A stretch of 45,074 nucleotides of DNA, filler included, from Jimgerdemannia flammicorona (GCA_003990765.1; 2 parts of 2 records of this genome joined end to end with filler, not necessarily neighbours in it); one strand, 5' to 3'; counted from the first letter of the whole stretch, positions 2,961 through 43,909 are shown. Program-made: numbers and translations. Notes: generated from the letters alone by a model not told the origin.

Positions 2961-3039
2961 ACTTATCTTGGCCCCTCAGATCAGGGCTCAGTTCTATTGG
3001 AAAGAAGAGTTCAAAGTTATCTGAGTTCAACCATATCTA

Positions 3040-4545: not shown

Positions 4546-4561
4546 GAACTTGGACTCCTTG

Positions 4562-10235: not shown

Positions 10236-10332
10236 AGTTGATTCAGATGGCTTTGGATTTGAGATTTAGATCAAACTATTATGTGATGAATCAAATCTAG
10301 ATTTGATTTGAATTGACTCATTTAGAGTACTA

Positions 10333-11963: not shown

Positions 11964-12189
11964 TGTATTTTTGTAGGATTGTGGAATAATGCGGAGTATT
12001 CACAAAAGGTAATATGCGCGTTTCGCATGTTGCTTTAAAAAAGGTAACGCCACTAAATGTATATACGGTCTTGTGCGTTGATATATATTAATAAGATGAA
12101 TTGTGTGGTTTATTCCGGAATGTTCGAAAATGATTCAACGGTCCATGGACCCAACATTCCCCAGAACCTCACTCACTACTCGATCCCCC

Positions 12190-13193: not shown

Positions 13194-13647
13194 GGTGATG
13201 TGCGGCCCAGGAATTGTAATTTATATATATGAGATGAAATTTTTCAAATCCAGATAACGTTTTTTAATAAACTTCGCCTCAATATATATATGGTTTTCAA
13301 GGATGCCGCAGTCATCATGTCACGTGAGACGACAACTACGCCGCTGAGTTCCCGTGCACTTTTCCCACGCAAAACCCTGCTGCGGCACCCGGGGATTTGG
13401 GGTTTGGTGTAGAGACGGCGGATGAGACCGAGTTTATTTTTGCGTGTGCGTCACAGTGTGGAAAGGGAATTTAGTGCTCGTCCGCAAATGTCTGCGTATC
13501 GAATGAACGAACGCTGGAGTTTGGAGATTGTAATGACGCGAGGGTGTGCAAGATGTGGGGATGTCAAGAAACTCCGGAAAATTTAATGCACATACCACGA
13601 ACCTAACTCACTCGGCCATTTTACCACTTTATTCCCGAAAACAATGC

Positions 13648-15691: not shown

Positions 15692-16029
15692 GAGTGCAAG
15701 TATGGTGGGATGGGATGGGGTGGCGTGTCTGGTGCAAAAAGGAAATGGATGACGTCACGCAATAGTTGCTGCGTGACGCGGAGTGACGCGGGGTGACCAG
15801 TTGTGACTGGGAAGTGTTTACCGAACATGTCATTGGATTTGGTAAAAAAAAATGGGAATGCTTTGTAACCTTATTTTAACCCTTCAGACTTTTCTAATCT
15901 ACATAAGACAAATTTGTTATTAATTTAGACCCCCTTCTTCTCAGACCCCTTCAGACCTCCTTCAGACCCTCCTTCAGACCCTCCTTCAATATATTAATAT
16001 ATACCCCGTCGCCACACACACTACCAGCC
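15692..16029. promoter_or_regulatory. Short bidirectional promoter region between ELM1 and ArgRS
   Basis: The starts are head-to-head, ~340 bp apart; the region contains tgacgtca, repeated gtgacgcg and tandem ccttcagacc repeats (15940-15988). Confidence 0.5.
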
Positions 16030-18696: not shown

Positions 18697-20278
18697 GGAT
18701 GGTTGGGACGGGGAAATTACGCTGTAATTGTACAATTGAATAAACATCCAGATTTTTGTGGTTCTGTGAATACAGTGGTGTAGATTTGGGCTTTACTTTG
18801 CCATTTTGACCAAACAGAGTATGGTATATACCATGGGGTATCTGAAGCTCGATTACTTCTACTTCATGCTTGAATTTCTTTGAATATTTGGCACCACACA
18901 CCAGTCGAAATCACGAAATGTTCGACTAAAATCCTAACCTTTATATATTATTATTAATTACAAATGATTAGTTACAAGATCTATATCTCGACTAATGATA
19001 TTATTTGATCATATTAAAATGTATTAAATTGCTGTTATATCTTTATTATTAAAATATGTTTGAGAAAGTCTTGTTTTTTTTTAATATATATATATATATA
19101 TATAGTTTTAGATCATGTTACATTATTGTATTTTTAATAAAGTATAATAGATAATGTATTTAATTTTAAATATGTCATGTTCAGAATGTGGATAAAAAGG
19201 TTACATTTTATTCCTTCAAAGTTTACAGAGATCTTTAGGTTGCCCACCATCATAGAACAGTACCATGTGAGCAACAGGCAGGCGGTATGTGGGCAAGTCA
19301 GTCGATGTGGCCTTTGACATACCCAAACCGATGCCGGCTGAGAAAAAACGTGCAAGATGGAACATAACGCTGCAGTTTGCGTTCCAACAAACCGTCACGA
19401 GATGGTGGTCTGGACAGTGACGACGATATTTGTGTTGAAGGCAAAGTCGTATTAGGATTTCTTGTTGCCCCCTCACCGGGGTCGAGTTTCAGGGGAGATT
19501 GAACTCTCCACCTTTTTGGTCCCGCCCAGTCGTTTGGGCGGCTGGGTCGGAGCTTCTGTTCCGAAGAGAGATGGCGATTGGTTCAAAGACAAGGAGAGTT
19601 ATATGAAAGAGAGTTATATGAAAGTTTGTGGAACGGGCAATGTTTTGGCGTCCAGGCCTGCAGAATGTCAAGAGGTTACAATGGCGTGATCCGACCGAGA
19701 ACAATGACGAAATTGTCCCATCGCATTCTTGCGTTGCTCTATGGCATGTCTCGCTTGTCATACTCATCTTATGCATTCTCCCCTCCACTATCGGGTTCTC
19801 TAACATCCGGTGTCTCTCGTGCAATGGATCGGCATTCGTTTCAAGCCGACTGGAGAAACTACCTTAGATGGAGAGTGTATTTATGGCCGGAGGTGTCTTG
19901 TGGGAATGTTGACGTATCAAATCTGGCGACATCTGCGGAAGTGTCCTGGGATCACTAGATGGTGGGTCGCTGCCTCATTGGTGTTGTGGACATCGTCCTC
20001 TGCTTGATCAGCCGAGTTATTGTTGTTACGGTGCGCGCTTCCCCTCCTCAAACCAAGATGGCATTATGTAGCGCTTGAATTCGAGCTGTGTTCCACCATG
20101 AGTCGTTAGTGATTAGAATTTGCTCCAGAGTAACAATGGCAATGCATAGATAAAGGTCATAACGTTTGGGAGAAGAAGAAAAAAACCGGTCCAGACCGTA
20201 TGATACAGATTAAAAAGTCTATAAATATTTGGATATTTGGATATATATATATATACATGCACTAAAGTTTAGAAAGAA

Positions 20279-20323
<45 letters not shown>

Positions 20324-20433
20324 CTTTTTTATCCCTCTAAAACAGCCGGGACATGTAGATGCAACCATTAGTAATTTCGAATATATACAAGATATGTTAC
20401 GGGATAAGAGGGAAAATATAAATGTTTACTGGT

Positions 20434-21649
20434 TCAAACTTTATGCGTCTCGAGAGGTTTCCTCCCAAACGCGTAAAATGCGTGCCAGTGTACCTGATAC
20501 TCGGTAAATTCCTCCATTGCGTGCATAATCATCTCGTCGTACACCTCGTTTCTCATACCGAGAACCCTAGCAATGTGCTTTTTTGCCGCTCTCATGGCGC
20601 TCTCAATGTTCTTGGCTGACATCGTCGCTATTTCTTCCGGACCCCACCCGACGGGCACCGAGCGATGGCTATGCTCAACGTTTTCTAGGCCTGCCATTGT
20701 CAGAGTCTCGCCAAACACATGAACTATTTCGGGGTTGATTCCGGCTATCTTGTACACGTCTCGAACTTATTTTGGTAGAAATTGGTTAGCTCGGGACACA
20801 CTTAACACACAGAAAATATTAAGTAGCAGCGTACATACCCTTCGCGTATAATGCTGTGGTCCTCGGTCCTCCGTGCAGCCATCCGTCCATATCAACTGTT
20901 ATGCACGAGAAAACGACTAAATACAAGGCACATGATGCAACACAAATCTTGCTACAATTATACCCAACCCTTGTGTTCACTTACCCAGTTCCACCCATCC
21001 TCCGGGCTTGGTCACCCTTATGAGCTCGCTTATCACCCTTGGCCACTCGTTCTCGCGGAAACACAATGTTTGCAACCTTTGAAAAACGTAGTCGAAGCTT
21101 CCGTCCGCGAAGGGTAGGTTGAGTGTATCGGCAGTCAGGAAATGGCAGTTTGGCGGCACCTGCTTGTTATAGCTGTAAGCCTCCACCAGATCCGTTCCCG
21201 TGAAACTGCTGGCCTGATAGACGCGCGCCATTTCGATTGACCAGATTCCTGTCCCGCAACCGGCTGGTTAAAGGGTAATCATCGTTCATGATTAATTAAA
21301 CGAGCCCTTTGGGAACAATTAATAAAAATAGCAACAACAATTATAACATACCGTCCAGCACCCTGGCTCCTTGCCACAGTTGTTCCTGCAGGGGCGTCAT
21401 GTGGTTACTGCCAAAAACAAAATTGACGAGGTAGTGTTGCTGATTTAAGCGGTTGGCCTCCTCCATGTCGTGGGATAACACATAGGCCGAAGGCGCGGCC
21501 TTGGTGAGTCCATTTCCGTCGACCCATTTAAGGCCGAGCGGCGGGTTGAGATCTGCTGTGGGCGGCCTAGCTGAAAGAACGGGAGGATGCTGAAGACCGC
21601 GTTGTTCATGCTTTCTCTTGTAAAACAGTCTGGATTGCGCGCTTCCCAT
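20434..21649 (-). CDS. LaeA-like SAM-dependent methyltransferase, 4 exons
   Basis: YVLSHDMEEANRLNQQH; VLD|AGCGTGIWSIEMA across an intron; LPFADGSFDYVFQR; ELIRVTKPGGWVEL; C-terminal YAFGRKP. Confidence 0.9.
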
Positions 21650-22490
21650 GATTGTGATGAGAAAAGGAGAGGAAAGGAGCGTTTAAGGTATTTCTGATTG
21701 ATTTAGTTGCAAGTTTAAATCTGCACGTGGTTCCAGGAATTCTTTAATCTCTGGAAGGGATCGACGGAGCACGCGACGGAGTGGCTGTGAACTCCTGCCA
21801 AATCCACCGGTATCTCGATGAGATCTATATAAATGTACTGTCGATCCCCTTCGAGCATGCAGCATGCGCCATCTGCGTGAATAATCTCAGTATGGCCGTG
21901 TGTTGGTTGTGAGGGTGGGACAACATTTTTATTGGTTCAGAGCTTTTGTCATGAGATGTCAGACTCATAATTTCCCGATGCGCCACCGCCGCGCGCACCA
22001 TTAAAACCTTCCGCTTGGGCCAAGCCAAGCCTGTGATGGTCTTTACGAAATTGGATCCAAAATGAAATGGGCAGATAAGATCCGTAGCCAAACCTTCAAA
22101 CTCATGAGGCATTTTTTTCCCAACCACAAGGGTTGCATAAAATTAGAAAAAATGCCTTTTCCACCAACGTAACACAGATTTATTATTGAGCGCGCCCGTC
22201 GGATCCACTCAAGCTATCATCCGACAGCTTACTCCGCCGCCCCCAAACCTTTTTCATCGTTGTACCCCCTAGCGACCCCAGCTCTCCCCTCTTCCACCTC
22301 ACTCGCCTCTGTTTCACCAATGGCCTGTACAAGGCCTTGGTAGCTTCGGTTGCGAAGGTATTCCCCTGGTACGCAACACGGTCATTGGAGAAACGAGGTC
22401 ATATTGGCGCGAGATTCAAAATTCGGGAAAATAGAGTGCCAACCCCCACTTCCCCACTTTCCAAAACAACAAAAAAAAAAAAAAAAACAA

Positions 22491-22590
22491 NNNNNNNNNN
22501 NNNNNNNNNNNNNNNNNNNNNNNNNNNNNNNNNNTTAATTAATTAANNNNNNNNNNNNNNNNNNNNNNNNNNNNNNNNNNNNNNNNNNNN
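22491..22590. other. Artificial contig-joining linker
   Basis: 44 N + TTAATTAATTAA (stops in all six frames) + 44 N, exactly 100 bp, between segments of 22490 and 22484 bp. Confidence 0.92.
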
Positions 22591-25500
22591 AATCCCCCTA
22601 GGGGGGCCCCTCTTCCCTACCTCTTCTTGATGAAACACTATGCTATCAAACACCATTACCACCCATCCACCACTCTGTGTGCAGATCCCTTCTACCAGAC
22701 AGCGACATTGCCCACTGTGTGGTCCCCATCCAACCCACCACCCCATCAGCAGATCTGCCACTAACTCCTCCCATCTCAACAACTTCTCCCATATCTCTAT
22801 CTGCTGTTCCTCCTTAAAAACAAAGAGCCAATATCCCACCAACCCCACTCACACTGCAATGACCCACCCTACAGTAAGCCATCTATTGCCAACACCTTCC
22901 ACAAGTCGAGATTCCAGATCCTCCCAACAACCCTGCTCTCCATCTGGTCTCCTTTCAACCCCTAGCCAGTCCCCAACAGCTATCCAAAAGTCCCCCAGCA
23001 CCTCATGCATCTGTCCTTAGAAACATGGACCCAAACTTGAAGTTCACAGTTACTACAGATACATCTAACTTTGCCATTGGTGCAGTCATTTCTCAAGATG
23101 ATGGTCAAGGACACTGACCTATTGCCTTTGAGTTAAGAAAATTGTCTCCAGCAGAACAAAAGCTGGCTACTTATGAAAAGGAACTCCTGGCAATTATGCA
23201 TGTCCTCAAGACTTAGCAATACTACCTAGAAGAAGTTGAGTTTGATATGATCACTGATCACAAGTCCCTTCAGTACATCAACACTTAACTAACTCTTTCT
23301 CGCCAACAAGCCAAGTGGAGTCAACTACTTCAGGCCTTTACTCCAAACATCATCTATAAGTCTGGTAAAACTCTAGTTGTACCAGATGTACTTTCAAGAA
23401 GATCTGACCTTGCTGCAATTTTACAAGTCACTATGACACCTGAATTCCTCAATCAGATCAAGAAGGCATATGAACAAGACTCTCTGGTTCTACAAAAGAA
23501 TACCAAGGAATTCAAGGAAAAATACACCATCAAGGACAACCTCATGTACTATCAAGACAAAGTATATATTTCTGCCAACCCTGAACTATGGTATAAGATT
23601 CTTTGTGAACATAATGACTCCCTACTAGCTGGTTACCTTGGAACTGAGAAGACTGTCAAGAATATCCAATGAGACTACTACTGGCCAAACATGCTCAAGG
23701 AAATCAAGGAGTATGTCCAAAGCTGCAATCTTTGTCAAAGAAATAAGTCAAGCAACCAAGCATCCACTGGTCTTCTACAACTCTTGCCAATTCTAACCAA
23801 GAAGTTTGAATAAGTCACAATGGACTTCATTGTGCAACTCCCATGAACCAAAACAGGCTATAATATTATTGTTGTATTTGTGGACCATTTCACCAAGATT
23901 ACAATCGCCAAGCCAATCACAACCAATGCCACTACCCCAGAAATTGCCAGAATCTTCAAGACTGTCTTCCACCATTATGGACTTCCCTGAGTAATTATCA
24001 GTGACTGTGACTCCAAGTTCACAAGCCACTTCTGGTAAGCACTCTTTAAGACCCTTGGAACCCAAATTGCTATATCTACTGCCTTCTACCCTCAAACTGA
24101 TGGACAGACTGAGAAAATTAACAGAATACTTGAACAAATGCTCAGAAACTATGTGTCTTATGAGCAAGATAATTGAGACCACTATCTGACCTATGCTGAG
24201 TTCACCTACAATAATGCCATCCAATCATCAACTGGCCTTTCTCCATTTCAGCTACTTCATGGTCAAAACCCCAAGACCCCTACAAGCCTAGTCTCATTCC
24301 AGCAATCCAGTCACACACAAGTTTCCACAGTCCAGAACCTTATTGACAAAATGGATTCTCTCCTCATGATTACCACTACAAACCTGCAAAGGCTCAGCAA
24401 TATCAAGCTAAGTATGCAGACAAGAAGTGGTAAGATGTCATATACAACATTGGTGATATGGTTTTACTCAAAGCTGACAATATCAAGGCTCAATCTCAAG
24501 TCAATCGCCAGTCAGCCAAATTCCAGCCCAAGTACCTTAGACCCTTTGAGATCACCAAGCAAGTCTCCACCTGGTCTTACTGTCTCAACTTGCCAACAAC
24601 CATGTGTATATACCCAGTATTCCATATGTTACAACTCAAGGCCTGGAACCAGTCACCTCTATATCCTGGCCGAATTCTGACACTATCAGCACTAGTGATA
24701 GTTGAAGACCACATTGAGTATGAAGTTGAGAAAATCTTGGACAAATGAGTCTGGTACTATCACACAGAATACCTAGTCAAGTGGATGGGTTATCTTGAAT
24801 ATGATGCCACCTGGGAACCTGCCACCAATCTCAGGAACTCCCAAGACCTCATCTAAGAGTTTGAGCAAAAGGAACTCATTGACTGCCCATGAGGTTCTCC
24901 TCTTGGATAGTAGATGATATACTGTGTTGATTAGGTACATTAAGCATCAGGGTACTCTAAAGAATACTGTATCAGAAATAAGAGATATAGGAGAACTCTA
25001 TAAATCTTACAACCAATGAGGTTTGAATCAGTTCTTATCTGATCAAGATGATACTTTGGCCCTCATCTTATACAAGAATGGCCAGTCTTTGCCAATGAGC
25101 CAACATATTTTATTTGAAGTTTCTTTTAGTCTTATTGTTTATTATATATAACTTTGAGAATTCAATGAGGATATTGATTCTTAAGGAAGGAGAGATATAA
25201 CATTTTAGCATAGTTTATTTCTTTTCTTTGTCTTTTCTCAATATTCTACAATCTTCCAATACTTTCCAAACACTTAGAAATCCTTTCTTAGTGCTGAGCA
25301 TCCACTAGTACTTATTTAGCTAGTTACTGAATATTCTGGAAACTTGTAGAACTTTATTCATCATTATTTGTCATTCTTGCTGAGAACTTTCCTCTTGGCA
25401 TTTTCCTTTGATTTCTCAGATCCTTCCAGATCCTTCTTTCAGATCTTATATAAATATCCCCTTTGTTCTTATGAATAAAGCCTCAGAATATTTTCTTCCA

Positions 25501-30100: not shown

Positions 30101-32118
30101 AGATGAAGTTGAAAGAGACTGTAAGGATTTACTGGGGCAGAGCTGGTAGAGATATTGGGAGGCAGAGAAGGAAAAGAGTGAGGTGTGCTTTCAATAGGTT
30201 GTTTAGACTGCAGATGGAATGGGCTGATTTGATAAATTCTGGAGAGGTGGATGACTGGAGGTTAGTGCGAGCTAAGCTAGAAGTGGTGGAGTTGTAACAG
30301 ATGTTGAGAGAGGAGAAGGAGATGTATATAAAAGAAATGGCATCTAGGCTGAGGTGGCAGGAGCTTGAGGAGGGGGGGAGGCCTAGGTACTTTTCCAGAC
30401 TTCTCCAGGCAAGAAGGGTGAGACATCAATAGGATGGAGTTCTTAATACAGAGGGGAAAATAGTACATAATATACAACAGATCTTGGAGTTGCTGAAGGA
30501 GTGATAGAGGGGTCTGTAGAGTGAGAAGGAAGGGGGTGCCAATGTAGAGACAATTGGAGACACTCTGGAGAATTGGGAGCCACCACAAGTAGAGGGCCTG
30601 GGAAATTGATCCTACTGGTCTAAGAGGAGGAGATTCAGAGAGTCCTTACAGCAACTAAGCTTAGAACAGCACCAGGAGAGGATGGACTACCTTGGGATTT
30701 TTGGAAGAAGATGGTGAGGGTCCCTGGAGTGTTAGGAGAGATGGCAGCCCTCTGAGACCTTGTTCTTCTAAATGGTCAGTAGATGGGAGAGCAGGACCTA
30801 GGGCTGGTGGCCCTGTTGTATAAGGACAAGGAAAGGAGAGAGAACTGGAAGAACTGGAGACTGATCATGCTTCTGAATATGGACAGGAAGATGGTTAAGG
30901 TGATTGTAGCAAGATTACAAAAGGTTGCCCAACAGATATTAGATGAGAAGTAGTGGGGCTTTGTTAGAGATAGACTTATTAGAGATGGGATGGCCTGGGT
31001 CTATGGCATCATTGAAGAGGCATGGACTAGTAGATTGGATAGAAGACTGGTCTTTTTGGACCAAGAGAAAGTCTATGACTATGTTTAGTTGGTGTGGCTG
31101 GATAAGGTGCTGAACAGAATAGGAGTTCTCCTACTATTTCGAACTTTTATGTTAAATCTGTTAGAGGGTAGTAGGGTGGCACTGATGTGTAATAGTCACC
31201 AGGGTCTGGTATTTCTCTTTGGGAGAGGAGTTTCTCAGAGGGATTCACTATCTACTATTCTATATGCCCTTTCTTTAGAATCTTTAATAGATAGAATTTG
31301 ACAGAAGGTAGCAGAGCTCTCTATCTATGGTGTGGTGTAGAAGGTGGGGGCCTTTGCAGATGACATAGTGGTTGGACTTAGATCAGTGGTAGATATTAAG
31401 GCTCTTAAGGAGATAGTAGAATGGTATGAGGCATACTCTGGAGCAAAACTCAACTGGCATAAGTATGAGACAATGGTGTTAGGAAATAGACTAGTAGGAG
31501 GGGATATAATTGGAACAATTGTCTCTACAGGAGAGGTGGTGAGATATCTGGGTATCTTTCTTTCAGTGTATAGATCTGTTTTGTCATGAGTGTGGTAGAG
31601 AGGAGGGTGGCCATCTGGGGGGAGGCTCTTAGATGTTAAGGAGGTCACTATATCTCTCTAGCAGGCCAGATATTGATTCTGAATATCTACTGGCCCTAAG
31701 TTATAGTATATTGCCTATTACTTGGACTTTCTAGCTTGGGTGGTGAAGATACTGATAAAACTGGCTAGAGATTGGATTTAGACTGAGAGGTAGTCCCAGA
31801 TCAGTTGGGATACTCTTTCAATGCCAGTAGTTCAAGAAAAGCTAGGACTAGTAGACTTTCCTAAGAGGCTACACTGCCTGAGAGTATGGTGGTTAAAGTG
31901 GACTATTGAACTGTGGGGAGGGAGATGGGTGCTGCTGATATAGAAGATATGAGATGAGATTCTCCCCAAGAGAGTTCTCAGGAGATTTGCTATCTCTGGT
32001 GGGTCTGGGTAGAAGCCATTGGCTATGGTATAAAGGCTTCTGGTGGGGGGTGGCAGATGGAGCACATTGCATAGGCTTATGCTGGCATAGCAATGAAGGG
32101 GAGATGCTGTAGAGACCA
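27200..32118 (+). mobile_element. Decayed LINE (L1/Tx1-like): ORF1 remnant, APE endonuclease, RT; 3'-truncated
   Basis: IFSLNVN, GDFN and WSDY (endonuclease); TAPGEDGLPWDFWK, NWRLIMLLNMDRK, LDQEKVYD, GVSQRDSLS, FADDIVV, RYLGI, MPVVQEKLGL. Confidence 0.88.
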
Positions 32119-35100
32119 ATATCTATTCAGCAGAAATCTTATAGAATACCCCATCATCTAAAAATATTTGAGAAGGAACATATTCAGAAACTCTTAAAAA
32201 ATAGAGTTATCTAACCCTCTATTAGCCTCTGGATCAGCTCTATACTTATTATACCAAAGAAAGAAAGATAGAGACTCTGTATAGATTACAGGAAACTCAA
32301 CTCAGTAACAGAAAAAAATGCCCAGAATCAATGATCTTTTAGACCAGTTACAAGATACCAGATACTTCAGCTGTACAGATCTTTTTACAGGATTCCATGA
32401 GATCTCCATTGACCCAAAAGACATTCAGAAGACAGTCTTTCTTACTCTAGAAAAACTATTTAAATACCTCTAAATACTCTTTAGATATTGCAATATATCT
32501 CCCATCTTTTAGAGAATAATAAATTCAGTCTATGGCTCACTGATCTACTACTGCCTGATTGTATATATAGATGATTCAAATATCTATTCAGTAAATTTTG
32601 AGGAATACCTACACTACCTAGAATAATTCTTCAAGCTCACCTATAAGAATTATCTGAGACTCAATGTTAAGAAATGCTACTTTAGAAAATAGAAACTTGA
32701 ATTTCTTGGATTTATAGTTTAAAAGAAGGAACCCATATAGATCTAAAAAAAAACTAAGAAGATTAACAATTGACCAGTACCTAAGACCCTGATGGAAACA
32801 CTATCATTCCTAATATTGGTATTCTACTATAGAAGGTTCATTAAAGACTTTACCCAAATCACTACCCTAATATGAATTTTTCTCAAGAAAGGAGTACCTT
32901 ACAAATAGACAGAATTACAAGAGAAAGTCTTTAAAGAACTCAAGTACTGCATAATCACAGCACTAATTCTTATTTGGCCCAATCTATTGAAGCCATTTAT
33001 CTTGTATACAGATACTTCCAAAGATGACCTCAGAGCAGTTCTAGCCTAAGAAGGATCTGACCAATAATACTATATGATAGCTTATATAAGCTGAGCAACC
33101 AATCAGCAGTAAACCAACTATAGTAGCACTAAACTGGAGTATCTTACAGTCATATGAGCAGTTATCTTGTTTAAGTATTATCTTATTAGAAAAAGATTCA
33201 CTCTAATAACTAACTATATAGCCCTTAAATGGCTATTCAACTATAAGGAATCCACCAGAATCCTAGCCTACTGGATTCTTATCCTTCAGAATTACAAAAT
33301 CACCATCATTTATAAAGCAGAGAAAGATCACAACAATATTAATATACTTTTTCATCAATCTCAATGAACTAGAAGAAGGGTATACTGAGGAACTACATCC
33401 TAAAGGAAGCTCCTCTAATTATCAAAGTATAAAAAGATCTCATCCAAAAAGAATACCAGAAAGCCCACCAAGGACAGGTGAATATAGAAGAAAAGCTACA
33501 AACAATATATCAATATTAGTCCAATCTCAGAACACAAGTCTGAGATATACTCAAGAAATATGACATCTGCCAAAAGTACTAAGAAAGAAAGAACCACCAA
33601 GCACTATTACAACCAATCATACTATCAGACAACATCTTTCAGAGATGGAGAGTAAATATAATTGAACCTTTACTCATTATACCAAAAGGAAACAAGTATA
33701 TCCTTATACTTATAGAATACCTGACCAAGTGGCCCAAAGCTTTCTCAATAGAAATTGCAGATGTCTCAACTATTGTAGACCTCCTCCATAGACTCATACT
33801 CAGATATAGACCTCCAGAAGAACTTATCTCTAATTGAGATACAGAATTTATTAATAATATAATTATAAGTTATATCTAAACATAAGATTCATCTCAAATA
33901 GACTATATCATACTACCCTCAGACCAATGGTATGACAGAATGAATAAACCAGACTATTTGCCTGAGTCAATCCTACTAATTAGAACCTCTGCTTACCTAA
34001 GATCTTATGGGAAATTCGAAATACCCCTACTGTCTCCACCAAACAAAAACTATTCAAAATAATTTTTATCAAGAGAACTAAAACTGCTGACTATGAGAAC
34101 TTCAGAGACCTCTTCAAGAAGACAGAATAGTTATATAATCAAGCATGAGTTCAGATTATCAAGGCTCAAGAGAGATAAAAGAAGTACTATAATCAGAAGT
34201 AGAAGAATTAGAAGATCAAGATTGAAGATCAAGTACTAGTTTGAAGAAGTATAAATATATGAACCTTGAGGATATCAGTATACATCAACTATCTCAAGAT
34301 ATACCTCTCCTATATAATGAATCAGAGGATTGATCAGTACCTCTAAACCCTCATTCTTAGTTCATTCCAATCACTTCTGATTCTCCTATCTCAATTCTGC
34401 TCAGCCTATAGAAACTCTCTCTAGTAAATTCAGATTCATTAAGAGAATCTCACTTTGGCCAGACATCTCCTATAAGTCCACCAACTATAGGCCTACTATA
34501 TAATTAGTAAACAGTTGTAAAACCTCCTAGCTCCAGAATAGACCTATATCAGAAACATCACAGGTCTGATATAAAGATATATCACTACTACTGACAGACT
34601 ATATACCATCTATAAATGAAATGTTGTAGCATTGATATAGACACAGTTCTCTCTACATAATATATAAGAGATGAATCTAGCCACCTACTTGAGTATTATC
34701 AACTATGTTGAAATCCTATTCCCAGAGAAAGAAAGAAAACCTATAAAGTAGAGTGACTCTGATACCAATGAAGATAATAGTTCAGATATTTATACTGAGG
34801 ATGTTTATGTATATTAAAGTGATAACTAAAGGATAGTCTGAGGACAGACTATCTTTTAGTAGGAGCTGATATAACAAGTAATAGAAATTGTACTAAAAAT
34901 AACTATATAGTGAGTGTACTTAATAGTCATGGATATATACATAAAAAGACAGTCAAACATATCTGAGTATATAAAAGATAGTCAAATATGTCTGGAGACA
35001 TCTAGAACTGCTTTGTCATAATAACTTATATAATTAGCCAAATATATCAAAAAGAGTATATTTATCTATATAGGATCTAAATATTTATACAGAACCTGAA

Positions 35101-35548
35101 CACTTATATAGGACTAGAACACTTATATTGAGTCAGAAATACCTACCATAAATAGTTTTCTATAATTAGCAACATATTAATCTGATAGTAACCATAACTG
35201 TACAAAATACTCTAGAGATAAGAGTGAATAAATCTTAGTCCAAAATTAAATCTAAAGCAAAATATAAGTCTGCCTACCACACTTTGAAAAGAACTCTATA
35301 ACTATTGCTAAAAGATTGTAAGCTTTGCCATTTCTACTCTAGTCCACTTTTTGATATAAAGAATAAGTCTATTTTTGATCTGCTTATTAGACAAGTCTGA
35401 ATAATTTGAGTAAATCCACTGCTCAAAGAAGAGCTGCCATTTTTAAGAAGAAGTCTACTATTCCTAGAGAGCCTATTATTCTTGCTATAAGTTAGTCTAT
35501 CTGATGCAACTTCACAGTAGAACTAGTCTATAATATAACCCTATATAA
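32119..35548 (+). mobile_element. Heavily decayed Ty3/Gypsy 3' half: RT, RNase H, integrase, accessory ORF, 3' LTR from ~34870
   Basis: LCIDYRKLN, DLFTGFHEI, VYIDDSNIYS, FILYTDTS, ITNYIALKWLF, EYLTKWPKA, YYPQTNGMTE; purine-rich tract before tataac at 34870. Confidence 0.82.
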
Positions 35549-37077
35549 TGTAATGGTGACCCCAGAATGATGACATTAGTACAGGAGACAGCTTTTCCTT
35601 ACAAGCCACTGGATAGGAGCATAAGAAGATTATATGGCATACGAGATGAGCAATGATGACCAACTGTAAGTCATTGTGACCACAGCATAAGTATTCTGAA
35701 GAATATAAAAGAAGGATCAAGGAACTACAGTAGCAGAACTAACAAGAACCACTAATCCCAAAATAGCTCAAAGACTTACCACAAATGAAATGCCTGCTGC
35801 CTGCCAAACCTCAAGATCAAGGAATCACCAAGGTATCTCAGTCAAGGAAAGGATGTTCCAAGACATCAGAAGAGCCATGGGGACCTGCTCAAGAAGGACT
35901 CCTAGTGTCAACCTGGGTACTGCAGACCCTTATCACTTTATTCTCTACTGCCATGAAATGGAAGCAAGGATCACCATTGCTACTGAATGCCTCTAAATAT
36001 GGCAGGAGTATAAAATAGGAAACCTTCTCTGCCAGGAGTTCCCACAGGCCAGCACTCAAGAGCTACAAGATACCACTTCCATAGATATATGTGAAATGAG
36101 GATAGCTAAGAATATCCATCAGATCTTCAGACATACACCATGGTCGATCCCCAACTTGGAGTATGTTAGAGTCTCAGACTTCAGAGACCTGTCATCCCGT
36201 CATATCAATGTACTAGAAGCCAGGGTGGCTACAGAAGCCCAGTCTGCTATCACCCTCAACAGCAAGGAAGTAGAAGACTTCTGATACCCCATCCTTCAGG
36301 ACAACCCAGACCAATTCCTGCAAGGATTGATCTCAGTATTCCAAGGCCCAAGCATCTAGGTTAGATCTCTCCAAGACTCCACATTTGTTCCTTATTTTAT
36401 AGAAGAGAACCTCATAGACTGGAGAGCTCCAGACCTTGTTCCTGATCTCCCCACCACAGCCAAATGTGATGATGTCATTGGCAATGACATCATCCCATGT
36501 GATATATATGAAATGCATGACCTGCATGATAAATTCGCAGATCTCATCTCCTTCAGTGATGATGATAATGAAGCCCCCATGATTCTGAACTTTCTGCTCT
36601 AAGTTCTTTATTACACTAGATAATGCCAGTACCAGTATTCTCATATAACACTGGATAATGCCAGCACTGGTATTCTGAGGTGATGTGAAATTGTTCCAGT
36701 ACCGGCATTTTGATGTGACACTAAATAATGCCAGCATCCTGAACCTGTACAACTATCAGTACCAACCCTAGAACTTAGTATTTTTAGTTATTGAAATTTA
36801 TATTTAGCTTTATATCTTAGCAACTATTGAATTATATTTTGTATAAATACTCCTCTTATTTTCTTTGAAATAAAGTCAGTTTTTTTCAGTACAATATATA
36901 TACTTCCTTGCAAGCAATCTAAGAGATAACAAGACAGTTTAAAGATAAGAAGTTTGAGGACTATAAGACCTTGAGAAGGCACTCCAATAAGAACTTGCTT
37001 ATAACAAACTTGAGTTAGTCTAAGAGATATACCTTGAAGAGAATCTGGCATATTTGAAGGACTCAGTGACCACTACA
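35549..37077 (+). repeat. 5' LTR (~1.53 kb)
   Basis: tgtaatggtgac...gtgaccactaca imperfect terminal inverted repeat, followed by a PBS-like tgacaacttg (probably decayed TGG...). Confidence 0.85.
35790..36602 (+). pseudogene. 270-codon ORF of unknown function inside the 5' LTR
   Basis: Its two stops (35994, 36282) are sense codons (CAA, TGG) in the 3' LTR copy. Confidence 0.8.
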
Positions 37078-37138
37078 TGACAACTTGATGCCCATTGGCT
37101 GGTGATTCAAAATGAATCCCTCACTTTTAAGCTGAAAA

Positions 37139-40100
37139 ATGAACAACTCCCACAACAACTATCCTGACTACAAGAGTCACCCCTGCAAGAATTCAAGACA
37201 GATGGAAATGTACCCCCCCACATTCTATGTATATACTACTAAAGAGTCAATCCTGACCTTTATTGAAGACTTTGAACAATTCGCCACCATACAAGCCCTT
37301 GGTATGGATGCTCAATTGGCCCTTCTATCAGTCAGCCTTAGAGGACCTACCAGAGACAAGTTCAATGCAGCCACCATTGCTGATACTGGTGCAGCCAAAC
37401 TTACCAACATGAAGGTCTTCCTCAGAACAATATATTATATCAAAGAGATCAAGCAAGCTCTCAAGGATCAACTCAATACTATCTGCCAGAGACTTAGTGA
37501 AGATTTCAACTCATTCTATATCTGAATTTGCCACCATATTATCTTGGCTGGCTATAATGACTGCCTCAAGGAACAAATAGCAGATTCAACCTTTCTTAAA
37601 GGAGTTCACTCTGAAATTTCCCTAGCAATCTGGTCTACCCCAGCTGCACTAACTCTTGATCAGAAAGTGGTCTTTGCACAGAGATATTGGACTATCAGAC
37701 ACCCTGCTGAATACTCAATGGAGAAAATAACTAGCATCAAGATGGAGCCATCAAAGCCAACTAGTATCTTACCTGCCACAGTCATAAACAGACAACCAAC
37801 CCCATCTATCCCCAAGACAGCCAAAGCTGACCCAGTGGAAAAACTTGCCAAGCAGTTTGCCAAGATGACTGCACACCTTGGTGATGTTGTTAGAGAAGTC
37901 TGAAGTGCTAACAAGAGACCAGTGTAGAGATTTGCAGCTACTACAGAAGAATGCAATATCACATGCTTCAGATATAGAGAAGAAGGCCACTATGCAAAGA
38001 GTTGTATGACCAAAACAAGATGCAAAGCCCAACCAAGCAATGCTAGCAGAACCAGAGAACAAATCAATACAGTAGTCATCAAGAAGATCAGTGATACTGA
38101 TGATGAAGAATACTATGAGGAGCTCAAATTCTACTCTGCTACTGAAGGTACCAGAACCCAGTCTAAGCCCTATGACAAGAAGAGCAACAGCAAGCCAGTT
38201 GGAAGACCAAAGAAGACCCCAGCTATCACTATTCAAAGCAAGACTCAACCTGAGGAGATTGACCAAGATATGGAGTTAGATGAAGCTGCCTGCCAAATCA
38301 TTGAAGACACTACTCCAGTCTTAGGAAAAAGTGAAAGCAAGAAGGAACAGAAGCTGTGCAAGACCAAGATCCACCAGTATGATATCTATAAGGACCTCAA
38401 GGAACAGAAGGTCAATGTCACTTTTGGATAACTAGCTGAAGTCCCTGCCTTCAGACAGCAGTTGAGAGTAGGACTTACAACTACCATCAAGAATCAAGAG
38501 TACAAGATTGTAGAAGCTCACAATGTACAGGAAGAATCCAAGAACTCAGGTGAAGAATCCGAAGACTAGCACAAGACATCAGCCTATACCCCCTACCAGA
38601 TCGAAGACTATATCTTTGATGCCATCATTGATACTGGTACTGGAGGATGCCTCATGAGTAAGAAGGCAATTGACTGCCTAGGTTGGGACATTGAAGAGTC
38701 CACCAAGATGGTCTATGTCACAGCAGATAGTACATGAGCTACTCCCCTTGGCAAAATCTGAGAAGTCCCCATCAAGATAGGAGGAGCCATCATCCCAGTA
38801 GACATGATTGTTACAAGTGCCACTAACTATGACATCCTCATTGGCAATCAATGGCTTTACAAGGCCAAGGCCATCATTGACCTCAATACCCAGAAGATGC
38901 AGATCAACTATAGAGGAAGAAAGGTATGAGTCTCTATCAATGTCTACAAAGGAGTTCTACCAGACATGGAGAAAGGAGATGAAGAAGACACAGAGGTCTT
39001 CATGCACTTAGTGAACAAGAACAAGAGCAAGACACTCAAGCTCACAGATGAGCAGTGGTACAATAAGATCATCGATGGCTATGCCCCTCAAGGAAGATGC
39101 CCCCATGGTACTAGAATGTACTGCTCTGAACACCTGAATGACTGCTGGTTCTGTATCAGTGAAGTCAGGAAAATCCACCAACAGAAATATGAGCAAGAAG
39201 CTGCCAAAGCAAAAAGGAAAGTCAAAGAAGATGACCAGCCCCCAGAGCTTCAAGCTGACAGTGATGATGAGGAGAAACAAGAATCAGACATCACCCTCAA
39301 GGTCAAGAAGTTTCACCCTGAAGCTAAGATCCCAGAATACAAGACTGAAGGAGCCATAGGAATGGACCTTGCCAGCATTCAAGATGCTACCCTCAAACCA
39401 CAGACCACCACCCTACTTGACACTGGAATTGGAGTCAAGCTGCCAGAAAACCATGCTGGAATCATCAAGACCAGGAGCAGTCTGGCCAAAAGTGAAATCT
39501 CAGTTGAAGGAGGAGTAATTGACCCTGATTACACTGGTAAGATCTTTCTCATAGTCAGAAATCACAACCACACCACCCCCTTTGAAGTCAAGAAGCATGA
39601 CAGAATTGGCCAGATGCTGATCCATGAAGTCAAGAAGCCTAAGATCATAGAAGCCATCGAACTTATCAAGATCAAGAGAGGAGAACAAGGCTTTGGATCT
39701 ACTGGAAAAGGAGCCTATGCTACTACTAAGATTACTGAACTTGAACATAAGAAAGACAAGGACCAGAACAAGCACACATATACCATTGGAGAAAACTTTC
39801 CCCTGGAGGAACAACTTCTCAAGATCCTGTACCAGAATGAAGGAGTACTTGCTATGGACTTCAGAGATATCCACAATCAAGAACCCAAGTACTACCATGA
39901 AGTTAACACTAGTGATACCAAGCCTATCTACTAGAAAGCCAGACCCATACCACCTGCCTACAGAGAGTGGCTGTGAGCAGAACTCAAGGAAATGGAAGAA
40001 GCCAGAATCATCAAGCAAGCTATCAGTTCCTGGGCCTCACCCATTGTCCTAGCCCTAAAGAAAGGAAGCAAGCCCAGAGAGTTTGTACCAAGACTCTGCA

Positions 40101-42440
40101 TTAACTACAGGAAACTCAATGCCATCACCAAGAAGGATAGGCAGCCCTTGCTGAATATTCAAGAAATCCTTACCACCCTTAGAAGTAAAGCCAAATACTA
40201 CACCACCTTGGATCTGTTCTCAGGCTTCTATCAGATCAGTCTCACTCAAGATACCAGTGAGAAATCAGCCTTCATCACACCTGATGCCACCTATATCTAC
40301 CTGTGAATGTCATTTGGAATGTGCAATGCCCCAGCAAGTTTCCAGTGAATAATGAACAGAGTCTTCAGCAACAAGATTGAAAAATGGCTCTTTGTCTATG
40401 TTGATGATATGATCATCTTCAGCAATACAGCATGGGAACATGTCAATCACATACAGCTAGCCCTCAAGAGGCTCAAGGAGTATGGCCTCTATATCAAACC
40501 CAAGAAATGCAAGTTTGCAGCTCAAGAAATCACCTACCTAGGACACCTCATCAATCAGATCAGAATCCATATAGACTCTATGAAGATCGAGGCTGTTGCA
40601 GCCTACCCAAGACCCAGAACAACCACAGAAGTCCATGCCTTCCTTGGACTGGCCAGCTACTACAGAAGATTCATCAAAAGATACTCCAATATTACAGCAC
40701 CTATCTATGAGCTACTGAAGAAGGAGACCAAATTCGAATGGACCATGGAGTATCAAGAAACCTTCAATGAACTCGACCCAAGCACCCATTCTCAGAAGAC
40801 CAGACTGGAACCTAGAATTCATCCTGCAGACAGATGTGAGTGCTATAAGACTTGGAGCAGTCCTAGCTCAGAAGAAAGATGGATATGAATATATCATCTC
40901 CTATACAAGCTGAGGTACCCGCAGAGCAGAACAGAACTATGAGTCATATAAGCTTGAATGCTTAGCAGTAGTCTGAGCAGTAGACAAGTTCCACTACTAC
41001 TTAGCTGGGAAACACTTCACCATTCAAACAGACTATTCTGCTCTTGCCTGGCTATTCCACACTCTGAACCCCAAAGGAATATATGCCAGATAGATCTACA
41101 GACTGCAAGAGTATGACTGTACTGTCAAGCACCACTCAGGAAAGACCAATACCAATACTGATACACTCTCGAGGACACCCCAAAATACTCTCATCAAGAC
41201 CATTCAACATGAATAAAGAGCTATACTATGGATTAATCAGCTATCTTGGACAGCAGAAGATGCCCAACCATCTCGAACCCTGGACAATCACTATCATCAA
41301 CTAGACTTGGAAACAGTTTGAATTAGATAACACTACACTTATGAAAGGAGGAAAGCTAGTAATACCCGAACACAAAAAGTATCAAGTAATGAAGGAAGTA
41401 CATGAGCAAGGATACTTAGGAGGAACCAACACATACAATAAGGCAAGAAGAACTATATAGTGGCCCAAGATGAAAGAAGACCTGTGCCAATTTGTCAAAG
41501 GGTATGATAAGTACCAAAAACAGAAACAAGATCAGCAAGACCAGGCACCCAAGTCATCAAGAATTGAGCCTATTCCCTTCCACCACATTGCAATAGATAT
41601 CATTGGACCACTACCAGTAACACTATCAGAAAACTGCTATATTATAGTTATTGTAGACCTCTTCACCAAATGGATAGAGGCAGGAGCATTACAAGAAGCC
41701 AATGCCCTCTCTATAGCTGACTTTCTACACTGAGAAATCATCTGCTGCTACAAGGCACCAAAGCAAATCACAACAGACCATGGAACAGAATTTGTCAATA
41801 GATTCTATGAAATAATGTATCAGAAATACAAGATCCAGCACATCAAGACCACTATGTACTATCCTCAAGAAAATGGACAGACAGAAAGAACCAAAAAGAC
41901 CCTCAAGAACATCCTAGCGAAGATCTCAGAGACATATGAGAATTGGGATATGTAACTATCTCCCAACCACCCTCTCTGTCCTATGAGACATATGGTCACA
42001 GAGCACACATTTTACCCCAAGAGAGCTGCTCTTCAGAGAAAAAGATTTTGATGGAACCTCAGCTACAAATCTAGACCTAACTTGGAGATGGATTGACACA
42101 GAAATCTGGAGACTACACCAAATCAGGAAGAAGGCTGAAGATTACATCACCAAGTCACAAGTGCTGATAAAGAAGAATGTAGAAAAGAATTACAAGGCCC
42201 TAGAACCCATCCGAATTGGAGAAAAGGTTCTACTGTATCGAAATATGATAGAAGCCTTATAGTTGTGAAAACTGGAGCCCAAATGGGAAGGACCCTTCTA
42301 TGTGCAAGATATCAAGAGAACTACCTTCTGGCTTAGAAAAATCTCAGAGACTATACTGCCTACCATGGTACATAGGAACAGACTCAAGAAGTACCATAAA
42401 CCTATACAAGAGAAGCAAAATATAATGACCACCCATGAGG
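37139..42440 (+). pseudogene. gag-pol (gag, PR, dUTPase, RT, RNase H, IN)
   Basis: Listed ORFs 37139-41733 are consecutive pieces separated by TGA/TAG/TAA codons and a few frameshifts. Confidence 0.92.
39290..39712 (+). pseudogene. dut: dUTPase domain between protease and RT
   Basis: All five trimeric dUTPase motifs are present: AIGMDL, RSSLA, GVIDPDYTG, DRIGQ, RGEQGFGSTG. Confidence 0.95.
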
Positions 42441-42773
42441 TTCTAGTCTGCAAATCATAACAGCATGTCCCATGACCAGCAGACTATCTGTCTAGACCAT
42501 TCTCTAAGGGATGCAGTACTGGCAACTTCTCATCCATGAGACTTTTGAAGTTAGAGGAGTTTGAACCATCAATTGATTGGTCAAGATCAGAATCAGGCCC
42601 TTGCTCTATATGAAGGGAGTGACTCTTCACCATTATGCCAAAATATAAAGGAAAGATGCCAGCTCATAAACACCACTTTTTGATCCCTTGCCAGAGGTTA
42701 TGGGATTAGCAAATTTTTCAGGACTGGACCAATGAATAAGAATGCTCAGAAAGATCCTTATTCAGGAGGAAGA

Positions 42774-43909
42774 TATAATGGTGACCCCAGAATGATGACA
42801 TCAGCACAGGAGATAGCTTTTCCTTACAAGCCACCAGATCGGAGCACAAGAAGATTATATGGTATACAAGATGAGCAACGATGACTAACTATGAGTCATT
42901 GTGACTATAGCACAAGCATCCTGAAGAATATAAAAGAAGGATCAAGGAACTACAGTAGTAGAACCAACAAGAACCACCAATCCCAAAATAGCTCAAAGAC
43001 TTACCACAAATGAAATGCCTGCTGCCTGCCAAACCTCAAGGTTAAGGAATTACCAAGGTATCTCAGTTGAGGAAAGAATATTCCAAGATATCAGAAGAGC
43101 CATGAGGATCTGCTCAAGAAGGACTCCTAGTGTCAACCTGGGTACTGCAGACCCTTATCACTTCATTCTCTACTGCTGTGAAATGGAAACAAGGATCACC
43201 ATTACTACCAAATGTCTCCAAATGTAGCAGGAGTACAAAATAAGAAATCTCCTCTGCCAGGAGTTCTCACAGGCCAGCACCCAAGAGCTACAAGATGTCA
43301 CTCTCATGGATATATGCAAAATGAGGATAGCTAAGAAGATCCATCAGATCTTCAGGCATACACTATGGTCAATCCCCAACTTGGAGTATGTTAGAGTCTC
43401 AGACTTCAGAGATCTATCATCCCACTGTATCAATGTACTAGAAGCCAGAGTGGCTACAGAAGTCCAGTCTGCTATTACCCTCAACAGTGAGGAAGTAGAA
43501 GACTTCTGGCACCCCATCCTTCAGGACAATCCAGACCAATTCCTGCAAGGATTGATCTCAGTATTCCAAGGCCCAAGCATCCAAGTTAGATCTCCCCAAG
43601 ACCCCATATTTGTTCCTTATTTTGTAGAAGAGAACCTCATAGACTGGAGAGCTCCAGACCTTGTTCCCAATCTCCCCGCCATAGCTGAATATGATGACAT
43701 CATTGGCAATGACATCATCCTGCATGATATATGCAAAATGCGTGACCTGTATGACAAATTCACAGATCTCATCTTCTTCAGTGATGATGATGATAAAGCC
43801 TCTATGATCCTGAACTTTCTGCTCTAAGTTCTTTATTACACTAGATAATGCCAGCACCAGTATTCTCATATAACACTGGATAATGCTAGTACTAGTATTC
43901 TGAGGTAAT
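42774..43909 (+). repeat. 3' LTR, interrupted at ~43909 by a younger repeat
   Basis: Colinear with 35549-36684; similarity stops abruptly after tattctgaggt. Confidence 0.92.
43015..43827 (+). pseudogene. 270-codon ORF inside the 3' LTR
   Basis: A single internal TAG (43225) that is TGG in the 5' LTR copy. Confidence 0.82.

Follow-up and report, generated by a model that had tools for sequence, protein, structure and literature searches.

The window analysed here, a stretch of DNA of 45,074 nucleotides, contains what appears to be a defunct Ty3/gypsy retrotransposon (gag, protease, dUTPase, reverse transcriptase (RT), RNase H, and integrase) in a soil fungus that looks Mucoromycota-like, and both of its long terminal repeats (LTRs) carry a frame that, by comparison with its relatives, was shown to be a genuine conserved protein-coding gene, open in several diverged subfamilies. 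The overall reading that we regard as probable is that of a Ty3/gypsy copy with an LTR of about 1.5 kb, a conserved accessory gene laid out with its own promoter in U3, and a nuclear trans regulator as the product. Accessory genes separate complex retroviruses from simple retrotransposons, and outside a few retroviruses, genes within an LTR are hardly known, MMTV sag being the textbook rarity. The features of the element are as follows.

35549–37083, + strand: 5′ LTR, about 1535 bp, probably full length, with termini TGTAATG...CATGACA
35790–36602, + strand: LTR gene, 5′ copy, 270 codons, a pseudogene with TAA at 35994, TGA at 36282, and TAG at 36357
37084–37138, + strand: leader from the LTR end to the gag ATG, the site where a primer-binding site is expected
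37139–42762, + strand: internal region, from Pfam on three read-through frames and single ORFs and from the ORF list
from the ATG at 37139, + strand: gag with a CCHC knuckle, the motif being seen in the frame-3 translation
about 38585–38906, + strand: protease (Pfam RVP/Asp_protease)
about 39320–39707, + strand: dUTPase (Pfam dUTPase)
about 40058–40547, + strand: RT (Pfam RVT_1)
about 40776–41115, + strand: RNase H (Pfam RT_RNaseH)
about 41362–41863, + strand: integrase zinc and core domains (Pfam Integrase_H2C2, rve)
42764–42772, + strand: polypurine tract AGGAGGAAG, adjoining the 3′ LTR
42773–43909, + strand: 3′ LTR, truncated, without its last ~400 bp including TATA box 2 and AATAAA
43015–43827, + strand: LTR gene, 3′ copy, 270 codons with a single stop (TAG at 43225)

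The LTR pair was aligned by blastn (35548–36684 versus 42773–43909) over 1137 bp with 90.237% identity and no gaps, giving a start-to-start spacing of 7225 bp. The start of the 5′ LTR was set by contig joints (42770->35548) in three of four runs together with the onset of LTR identity, and its end at 37083 was based on loose ends in two contigs (run X19), the terminal inverted repeat, and homology to the metagenome contig L001, which continues beyond 36684 to about 36990. The terminal inverted repeat is 7 bp long, with TGTAATG at 35549 and CATGACA ending at 37083, and it rests on this inferred LTR end. The full LTR thus probably extends to about 37083, so that the 3′ LTR is truncated; GC-rich unrelated DNA adjoins its broken end at 43909, and the original 3′ junction was therefore lost. 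No target-site duplication was found, as the flanks differ and the 3′ LTR is truncated. The junction between the polypurine tract and the 3′ LTR recurred in contigs of X1, X2, and X4 (three of the four runs). A primer-binding site was not identified after the 5′ LTR (37084–37138), no tRNA gene lies within the window, and a self-priming duplex test gave just −12.5 kcal/mol with scattered pairing. The internal region is interrupted by stops and two frame changes, and Pfam on its read-through frames gave the pol domain order RVP/Asp_protease, dUTPase, RVT_1, RT_RNaseH, Integrase_H2C2, and rve. The copy has the features of Ty3/gypsy elements (Metaviridae), namely direct LTRs, a gag CCHC motif, the order protease–RT–RNase H–integrase, TG...CA termini, and a polypurine tract. 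A dUTPase between protease and RT is described, in the part of PMC6431247 that cites Riccioni 2008, for LTR retrotransposons of fungi and rotifers. The element shares this position with dUTPase-bearing fungal Ty3/gypsy elements such as Tmt1 of Tuber, which is called chromodomain-bearing in a passage of PMC12581995, whereas no chromodomain was found by Pfam in the three read-through frames of the internal region here.

The frame is complete at LTR positions of about 242–1054 in both repeats, and since the gene lies wholly inside the LTR, each element carries two copies. The original prediction of ORFs at 35790–36602 and 43015–43827 with non-shared stops was borne out: the 5′ copy has three stops and the 3′ copy one, none of them common, and a single transition separates each from the sense codon at that site of the other copy. 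Across the ORF, the coding frame holds three stops in the 5′ LTR, one in the 3′ LTR, and none in L001, and each of the other five frames holds 7–27. Among the 111 differences between the LTRs, 109 are transitions (C>T 34, T>C 30, G>A 27, and A>G 18) and two are transversions, which indicates that both copies died after insertion. The two ORFs differ by 29 synonymous and 50 non-synonymous changes, a synonymous fraction of 0.37 compared with a neutral C>T/G>A expectation of 0.38–0.41. Neutral C>T/G>A decay was thus shown to have inactivated both gene copies once the element had inserted. The accompanying claim that this genome strongly erodes its repeats needs correction. The repeats are depleted in CpG, with an observed/expected value of 0–0.11 versus about 1.0 in genes. 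The (CpA+TpG)/(ApC+GpT) ratio of the repeats is high (1.2–1.56), which is the opposite of classical RIP; the erosion is CpG depletion and not classical RIP.

Intact relatives of the LTR protein in public protein sets are 247–342 aa long with 32–79% identity. A word-based search returned six of 330 candidates at E ≤ 0.01 with 56–79% identity, among which a 271-aa form covers 100% of the query, and a profile search of 1.84 billion representatives gave five proteins (representative clusters), down to 32–40% identity, with no gag-pol fusions, longer forms, or host-type or non-LTR homologs among those representatives. The 323-aa form is intact on L001 and in two cluster members, and the 342-aa relative still begins with MP(A/P) and keeps the LNF motif at its C-terminus. 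At 32–57% identity, frames of 271, 323, and 342 codons are thus open with conserved start and end motifs, the database proteins being ascertained as open frames. At the DNA level, the comparison covers one relative, L001, a putative LTR counterpart that may derive from this organism or from a near relation of it. Across 5000 shuffles of L001, the longest open run was typically 91 codons (median) and never exceeded 237, so the 343 observed was reached in none. The maintenance of an accessory gene in the LTR, as had been predicted, was supported by intact relatives in several diverged subfamilies. All relatives found came from unannotated metagenome data.

Selection was evaluated at the codon level. 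The NG86 dN/dS between the window and L001 was 0.15–0.20, but the uncorrected pN/pS was nearly equal between subfamilies (0.42) and between the two decaying LTRs (0.46), so that the low dN/dS depends on the correction of saturated synonymous sites (pS 0.68–0.72). The differences by codon position (97/65/135 between subfamilies versus 30/19/35 between LTRs) were likewise non-discriminating. The count of stops is a further measure: for the 309 nucleotide differences between the 3′ copy and L001, about 15 stops are predicted at the rate seen in the window (four stops per 84 differences), whereas L001 has none and the 3′ copy has one, which arose after insertion. The GC3 of the LTR gene (0.47–0.50) matches gag and pol (0.49–0.52) and not the host ArgRS exon (0.79), so its codon composition is the element's own and unlike that of the host.

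The signals around the gene were located in the 5′ LTR as follows.

35683–35699, + strand: partial repeat copy (CAGCATAAGTATTCTGA), just before TATA box 1
35704–35710, + strand: TATA box 1 (TATAAAA), a putative LTR-gene promoter 86 nt before the ORF
36609–36746, + strand: three direct repeats of 33–35 bp (ACACTnGATAATGCCAG...GTATTCT), after the ORF stop and before TATA box 2
36842–36874, + strand: TATAAATA (36842), putative promoter of the genomic RNA, and the LTR's sole AATAAA (36869), putative poly(A) signal

A TATA box upstream of the ORF had been predicted and was present at 35704, 86 nt before the ATG, where GAATATAAAAG is identical in both LTRs and L001; a box so close before the ORF suggests that the LTR contains a promoter dedicated to the gene. 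The second TATA/AATAAA pair predicted after the ORF was found at 36842/36869, but it lies outside the shared 1137 bp and, with the 3′ LTR ending abruptly at 43909, is present in the 5′ copy only. L001 has the same order of TATA box, ORF, TATAAATA, and AATAAA as the window; TATAAA occurs there just twice (positions 4 and 1218) and AATAAA once (1244), at corresponding sites. The spacing from TATAAATA to AATAAA is 27 nt in the window and 26 nt in L001, and a block near TATA box 2 and AATAAA, TGTATAAATAC(T/C)CCTC, is conserved in both. The three 35-bp repeats sit 100–230 bp upstream of TATA box 2, an enhancer-like position in which their role is putative. On these motifs, the LTR gene would form its own transcription unit in U3, in which TATA box 1 (35704) would drive an mRNA of about 1.15 kb ending at the single AATAAA (36869), and TATA box 2 (36842) would drive the genomic RNA. 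As TATA box 2 lies 27 nt before the sole AATAAA, R would be short, about 20 nt, with some 190 nt left for U5; a complete gene would consequently persist in a solo LTR. Of the predicted U3-resident gene with its own promoter, both TATA boxes were thus found, with a TATA-to-AATAAA spacing conserved in L001; U3 residence itself is plausible, and placement there with an own promoter fits the conserved motifs.

The same motifs can be read with TATA box 1 as the sole promoter, which would leave a U3 of just about 190 bp and place the ORF in an R of about 1.15 kb as the first cistron of the genomic RNA, the protein being made also from short transcripts that stop at the poly(A) site of the 5′ LTR. 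In this case, TATAAATA...AATAAA would be no promoter but a two-part fungal poly(A) signal (efficiency and positioning elements). TATA box 1 is indeed conserved as well as TATA box 2, and yeast-type poly(A) signals usually have an A/T-rich TATATA-like element upstream of AAUAAA. An R of about 1.15 kb is, however, several times longer than any known to us, and a 270-codon ORF with a leader of about 1.4 kb ahead of gag should block gag translation, while the stretch from about 36872 to the gag ATG holds three short upstream ORFs only, as expected of the leader of a working gag mRNA. We consider this arrangement unlikely.

The protein encoded by the LTR gene belongs, by all searches made, to an orphan family. 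For eight members, Pfam at E ≤ 1 gave no family match save two chance-level rows, each in one of the eight, and no PDB sequence matched at E ≤ 10. Structure prediction followed by Foldseek, which had been proposed for the repaired protein, yielded no fold match that could guide function: the models were poor (mean pLDDT of 35 and 51), Foldseek on the latter gave nothing at E ≤ 0.001, and its best VIA-align Z was 3.2. A helical core was predicted with pLDDT of 72–90 over residues of about 100–160. No membrane segment was detected in six of six members (maximum 19-residue hydropathy ≤ 1.05). The N-terminus is arginine-rich; in P0003, the 271-aa form, the first 40 aa carry a net charge of +8. The overall charge is −21 to −36, and the protein has a long acidic tail that ends in hydrophobic DLISF and LNF(L/x)L motifs. 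The acidic, hydrophobic character of this tail is evidence of composition alone.

The basic N-terminus and the long acidic tail lead us to favor, though only tentatively, a nuclear trans-acting regulator of the element's own expression, with an activator as the likeliest form; this is the least secure step of the overall reading. The soluble protein would regulate the element in trans from within the nucleus, most likely as an activator via the three 35-bp repeats that precede TATA box 2, and the LTR would then work as a two-promoter feed-forward switch in the style of foamy-virus Tas. More broadly, it is possible, if doubtful, that the LTR is a self-contained cassette, nested in U3 before the genomic promoter, in which a promoter and a poly(A) signal frame the orphan ORF, with full elements and solo LTRs together supplying a nuclear trans regulator of either activating or anti-silencing type. 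With the same gene and layout, the protein might instead restrain the element (copy-number control or immunity) or suppress host methylation or RNA silencing. Gene dose would track element copy number, as the gene is duplicated in each element and would survive in solo LTRs, and the heavy CpG depletion of the repeats implies a methylation-linked defence to be countered. Known self-restriction factors are gag fragments, however, and the LTR protein has no similarity to gag, nor does its sequence, with no Pfam or PDB match, indicate a specific target, which makes such a role quite unlikely. Highly improbable, and largely refuted, is an origin of the frame by chance or as a piece of a host gene lately acquired, carried along neutrally in the LTR: the alike raw pN/pS values and a small family seen in unannotated metagenome data only would suit it, but 271-, 323-, and 342-codon frames with conserved ends stay open at 32–57% identity, none of the 5000 shuffles yields such a frame, the other five frames hold 7–27 stops, the codon composition is element-like, and no non-LTR homolog of any length occurs among the 1.84 billion representatives. 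Element-like GC3, intact diverged relatives, and the lack of host-type or fused homologs thus rule against both outcomes that the original prediction had named as contrary to it, an ORF not maintained in related LTR families and a neutrally evolving captured host fragment.

Among the closest known counterparts is MMTV, whose LTR of about 1.3 kb includes sag, a complete ORF of about 300 codons that precedes the genomic promoter. The one paper returned by a literature phrase search for an ORF contained in an LTR was a review of MMTV (PMC9412291). The element shares with MMTV a long LTR (about 1.5 kb here), a complete ORF, and a gene at both ends. MMTV Sag is a type II membrane glycoprotein, whereas the LTR protein has no membrane segment and no sequence relationship to it; here, moreover, a Ty3/gypsy retrotransposon that lacks env carries the gene in a fungal host, and a TATA box lies directly upstream of the ORF. 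In foamy viruses, an internal promoter provides basal expression of the trans-activator tas/bel1, which has an acidic C-terminus and then turns on the LTR promoter, and HTLV tax acts on repeated LTR elements. The putative second promoter, the acidic C-terminus, and the upstream repeats resemble these systems in proposed working principle only. The gene here lies wholly in the LTR and not, as foamy-virus tas, between env and LTR; its product gave no fold match with the low-confidence model (mean pLDDT of 51), and neither Pfam nor PDB sequences at E ≤ 10 placed it in the Tas/Bel1, Tax, or Tat families. Plant aORFs (Grande gene23, RIRE2, Retand, Ogre ORF1, and env-like ORFs) are described in parts of PMC7264820 and PMC6431247 as conserved, of unknown function, and without database similarity, some having their own promoter and nuclear proteins. 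They are likewise extra ORFs of Ty3/gypsy elements, but passages of PMC7264820 place them in the internal region, for the most part after pol and ahead of the 3′ LTR, and none of four phrases for a location within an LTR or upstream of gag occurs in that review, whereas the ORF here is in both LTRs and would persist in solo LTRs.

If the cassette reading is true, it would be the first LTR-borne accessory gene of an LTR retrotransposon outside retroviruses, and a conserved gene in the LTR of a fungal Ty3/gypsy element would mean that the LTR-borne gene design arose independently in retrotransposons. Solo LTRs would then be potentially coding genes, beyond promoters, and the debris of a transposon family would go on providing it with a "public good". 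ORFs inside LTRs are masked by LTR annotation pipelines, and the family is therefore invisible in annotated genomes. This orphan protein family, with the LTR as its only known home, is an entry point to the mutual regulation of early-diverging fungi and their transposons.

The region 35548–43909 is a Ty3/gypsy LTR retrotransposon. Its direct repeats (35548–36684 and 42773–43909) form a gap-free alignment of 1137 bp (90.2% identity), the polypurine tract AGGAGGAAG directly adjoins the 3′ repeat, and the junction between the internal end and the LTR start is also present in contigs from three of the four public sequencing runs compared. Read-through translation of the internal region gave Pfam domains in the order aspartic protease, dUTPase, RT, RNase H, integrase zinc domain and integrase core, together with a CCHC knuckle in the gag portion; no chromodomain was detected by Pfam in the read-through frames, and the internal reading frame is interrupted by stops and two frame changes. 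The dUTPase domain (39320–39707), located between protease and RT, lies inside an intact 322-codon ORF segment (38966–39934), while the remaining pol is broken. A search with this ORF for longer relatives gave one distant copia-like match and no pointer to the lineage of the element. A dUTPase between PR and RT has already been reported for fungal elements, according to PMC6431247. Contigs matching this copy at 99% or more were found in the soil metagenome run X1 (710 of the 6315 contigs compared). Two other degraded Ty3/gypsy fragments occur on the + strand, namely a chromovirus 3′ part with RNase H, integrase, SH3_Tf2-1 and chromodomain (22600–24900) and an RT–RNase H fragment immediately upstream of the studied element (32321–33295), which indicates that the element sits in a transposon nest. 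Between 27000 and 32000, GC skew is strongly positive (+0.35 to +0.56) across 5 kb, with a CpG observed/expected ratio of approximately 0 and an RVT_1 match on the + strand (~30846–31557); this stretch may be a retroelement, non-LTR or of another type, that was deaminated asymmetrically between the strands. Two N runs of 44 letters each (22491–22534 and 22547–22590) are masked or unresolved.

Each LTR holds a reading frame of about 270 codons, as originally predicted, and both its coordinates and its non-shared stops were borne out. The 5′ frame (35790–36602) contains three stops, at 35994, 36282 and 36357, and the 3′ frame (43015–43827) contains one, at 43225; none of the four is common to both copies, and each is a single transition away from a sense codon of the other copy. 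Transitions account for 109 of the 111 differences between the two repeats, and many of them stand in a CpA/TpG context. Within the ORF, 29 differences are synonymous and 50 are non-synonymous. The resulting synonymous fraction of 0.37 lies beside a neutral expectation of 0.38–0.41, which was obtained by counting all C>T/G>A changes open to the ORF, indicating that both LTR genes have decayed neutrally since insertion. The CpG observed/expected ratio is 0.00–0.11 in the repeat-rich parts of the window (1–12000 and 22000–44000), with a few bins up to 0.39, and approximately 1.0 in the genic part (12000–22000). Classical RIP would lower (CpA+TpG)/(ApC+GpT); it was ruled out as the decay process by the high value of this ratio in the repeat regions (1.2–1.56), and TpA/ApT carries no RIP signature either. 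Judged from base composition, the repeat decay looks like deamination of methylated cytosines, that is, a methylation-deamination-like genome defence. The genic part includes a host arginyl-tRNA synthetase gene of at least two exons (15907–18696), for which the best named relatives were from Umbelopsis (72%) and Glomeromycotina (67–70%), and one unnamed protein reached 79%. With no named relative closer than these, the host is accordingly a Mucoromycota-like fungus.

The LTR ORF can be regarded with high confidence as a real gene belonging to the LTR. A word-based protein search recovered 6 relatives among 330 candidates (56–79% identity), including an intact 271-aa protein, P0003, that spans the entire query with start and end alike. 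A second subfamily was reached by cluster look-up and through the 1345-nt metagenome contig L001, which carries an intact 323-codon frame of ~57% identity. When 1.84 billion representatives were searched with a profile and without any limit on length, only 5 proteins came up, down to 32–40% identity, and no fused form of the LTR protein; among the relatives, one of 342 aa keeps the MPP..QTA start, the acidic tail and the LNF motif. The coding frame of L001 has no stops, as against 13–27 in each of the other five frames, and an open run of the observed length was reached by none of 5000 shuffles. At the rate of the dead LTR pair (4 stops per 84 differences), about 15 stops would be expected across the ~300 differences between the window and L001, whereas the LTR-gene lineage acquired none before insertion. 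For codon-level selection, a check originally proposed across LTR copies, the NG86 dN/dS between the window and L001 is 0.15–0.20, but this value hinges on the correction of saturated synonymous sites, and the raw pN/pS of 0.42 is near that of the neutral LTR pair (0.46). Neither the codon-position pattern nor raw pN/pS separated selection from a transition-biased neutral process when the subfamily and LTR-pair comparisons were set side by side. Amino-acid conservation is mildly uneven along the ORF between subfamilies (p = 0.007) as compared with the two LTRs (p = 0.21). Non-coding identity by global alignment was set aside because the scoring inflated identity. The ORF is thus identified as a gene chiefly because several master lineages have kept a 270–340-codon frame open while diverging to 32–57% identity, so that maintenance in related LTR families, on which the original prediction was to stand or fall, was observed. 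The open frames of these diverged subfamilies keep conserved ends, and their length changes are in-frame.

The gene is not a captured host fragment, the other outcome that would have spoken against the original reading, since its GC3 is element-like and no homolog was found outside its small family. The window copies of the gene have a GC3 of 0.47–0.50 and the L001 copy one of 0.47, values of 0.49–0.52 were obtained for the gag, dUTPase and RT segments of the element, and the neighbouring host gene has 0.79. Pfam, PDB sequences, the Atlas and the representative library gave no homolog beyond the family. In Pfam, the window protein matched no family, and 8 members gave two chance rows only (E 0.13 and 0.23); the PDB sequence profile gave no match at E ≤ 10. 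None of 44 pattern matches in IMG/VR was a relative, and L001 was the only one confirmed among 380 pattern matches in the metagenome contig scan.

The motifs named in the original prediction (TATAAAA, TATAAATA and a single AATAAA) are present, and the LTR is laid out as follows:

Upstream LTR sequence, approximately 155 bp before TATA box 1
35704, TATA box 1, 86 nt before the ORF
36609–36746, three repeats of 33–35 bp, between the ORF and TATA box 2
36842, TATA box 2, TATAAATA
36869, AATAAA, the only one in the LTR, followed by approximately 190 bp to the LTR end

The full LTR is probably 35549–37083 (~1535 bp), as read from its sequence and from related contigs. The 3′ repeat breaks off at 43909, lacking a CA terminus, and is followed at once by unrelated DNA of high GC content; L001 can be aligned with the 5′ copy past 36684, to ~36990; two contigs of run X19 depart from the element at 37083 into different flanks; and CATGACA, which ends at 37083, matches the LTR start, TGTAATG, in inverted orientation. 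On these grounds, the LTR end was placed at 37083 and the 3′ LTR was regarded as truncated, which accounts for the lack of a detected target-site duplication. A faint hint of the same extent comes from the summed contig depth in runs X1 and X2, which is ~2–4 times higher over 35550–37050 than in the internal region, although contig depth cannot rank parts. The contigs of X19, a run only guessed to be RNA, cover 35550–37299 and leave the internal region uncovered in most bins, a pattern from which no conclusion is taken. Their joints inside the ORF (98–182 nt skips) were considered as introns and rejected, as the ends are not GT..AG, and were read as variant copies. The 3′ LTR breaks off (36684/43909) where the array of 35-bp repeats has its boundary, and one contig of run X4 swaps 36685–36770 for 20 other letters at the matching point; the array is a candidate hotspot of recombination or deletion.

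L001 contains exactly two TATAAA and one AATAAA within its 1345 nt, placed as in the window. TATA box 1 lies in an 11-mer identical between the two, and the TATA-to-AATAAA spacing is 26 nt in L001 and 27 nt in the window, with a different spacer sequence; a third TATAAA, at 36009 inside the window's ORF, is not conserved in L001. An extra out-of-frame ATG (35785–35787), 5 nt before the ORF start, opens a short overlapping upstream ORF in the window; L001 lacks it, and the ORF's own ATG comes first there. A bacterial-type promoter/terminator scan, irrelevant to a eukaryote, was at chance level (5 found, 4.9 expected). Pairing of the leader with the putative RNA 5′ end in a self-priming test (−12.5 kcal/mol) was scattered and not convincing.

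The best-supported layout would place the gene in U3 with its own promoter, as the motif arrangement suggests. TATA box 2 would be the genomic promoter, with the start site at or just past AATAAA, so that the poly(A) signal would be complete only at the RNA 3′ end. This is the arrangement of several retroviruses. R would then be ~20 nt and the ORF would lie within U3, TATA box 1 driving a separate ~1.15 kb ORF mRNA that ends at the poly(A) site common to the genomic RNA. A promoter–ORF–poly(A) unit would accordingly be complete in each LTR, hence in any solo LTR. It is unlikely that TATA box 1 is instead the sole promoter and that TATAAATA and AATAAA form a two-part poly(A) signal. The gene would then lie within an R of 1.15 kb heading the genomic RNA, and gag would come only after a long ORF.

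The LTR protein is soluble, having no hydrophobic segment. Its N-terminus is arginine-rich (net charge +8 over the first 40 residues of P0003), the whole is strongly acidic (net charge −21 to −36), and the tail, variable in length, closes with the conserved motifs DLISF and LNF(L/x)L. Structure prediction with Foldseek, as originally proposed, led to no PDB match at E ≤ 0.001 from a model of low confidence (mean pLDDT 51). This model is of the 323-aa form (14 sequences; pLDDT 51.1, pTM 0.43); an AF2 model of the 271-aa form had a mean pLDDT of 35.4 (0.35 in the Atlas's own model), and only the deeper alignment gave a helical core of moderate confidence in AlphaFold (pLDDT 72–90 at residues ~100–160). 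The wide VIA-align comparison reached a best Z of 3.2, with none of 48,161 chains at Z ≥ 5, and the Atlas feature search remained at chance level (scores ≤0.83), so no fold match stood out from noise. A nuclear regulator bearing an acidic activation region would be expected to have such a composition. Combined with the two-promoter layout and with the repeats that precede TATA box 2, this composition leads by analogy to a first, tentative guess that the protein might be a Tas/Tax-like feed-forward activator, in line with the transactivating role imagined originally. A dose-dependent repressor and an anti-silencing factor, the latter also imagined originally, are live alternatives.

In formal terms, the nearest counterpart is MMTV sag, where the U3 of a long LTR likewise holds a complete ORF; unlike Sag, the protein described here has no membrane anchor, and it shares no sequence similarity with Sag. 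In the openly accessible literature searched, work on ORFs in the LTR or U3 consisted of retrovirus papers or generic usage of "LTR-encoded proteins", and no LTR retrotransposon was found whose LTR encloses a conserved gene, which is not proof of absence. The "additional ORFs" of plant elements, as described in PMC7264820 and PMC6431247, are likewise orphan and conserved, and some are separately transcribed; these sit in the internal region, whereas the present gene is inside the LTR. It is an accessory retroelement gene of an orphan family, and its position has until now been on record for retroviruses alone.
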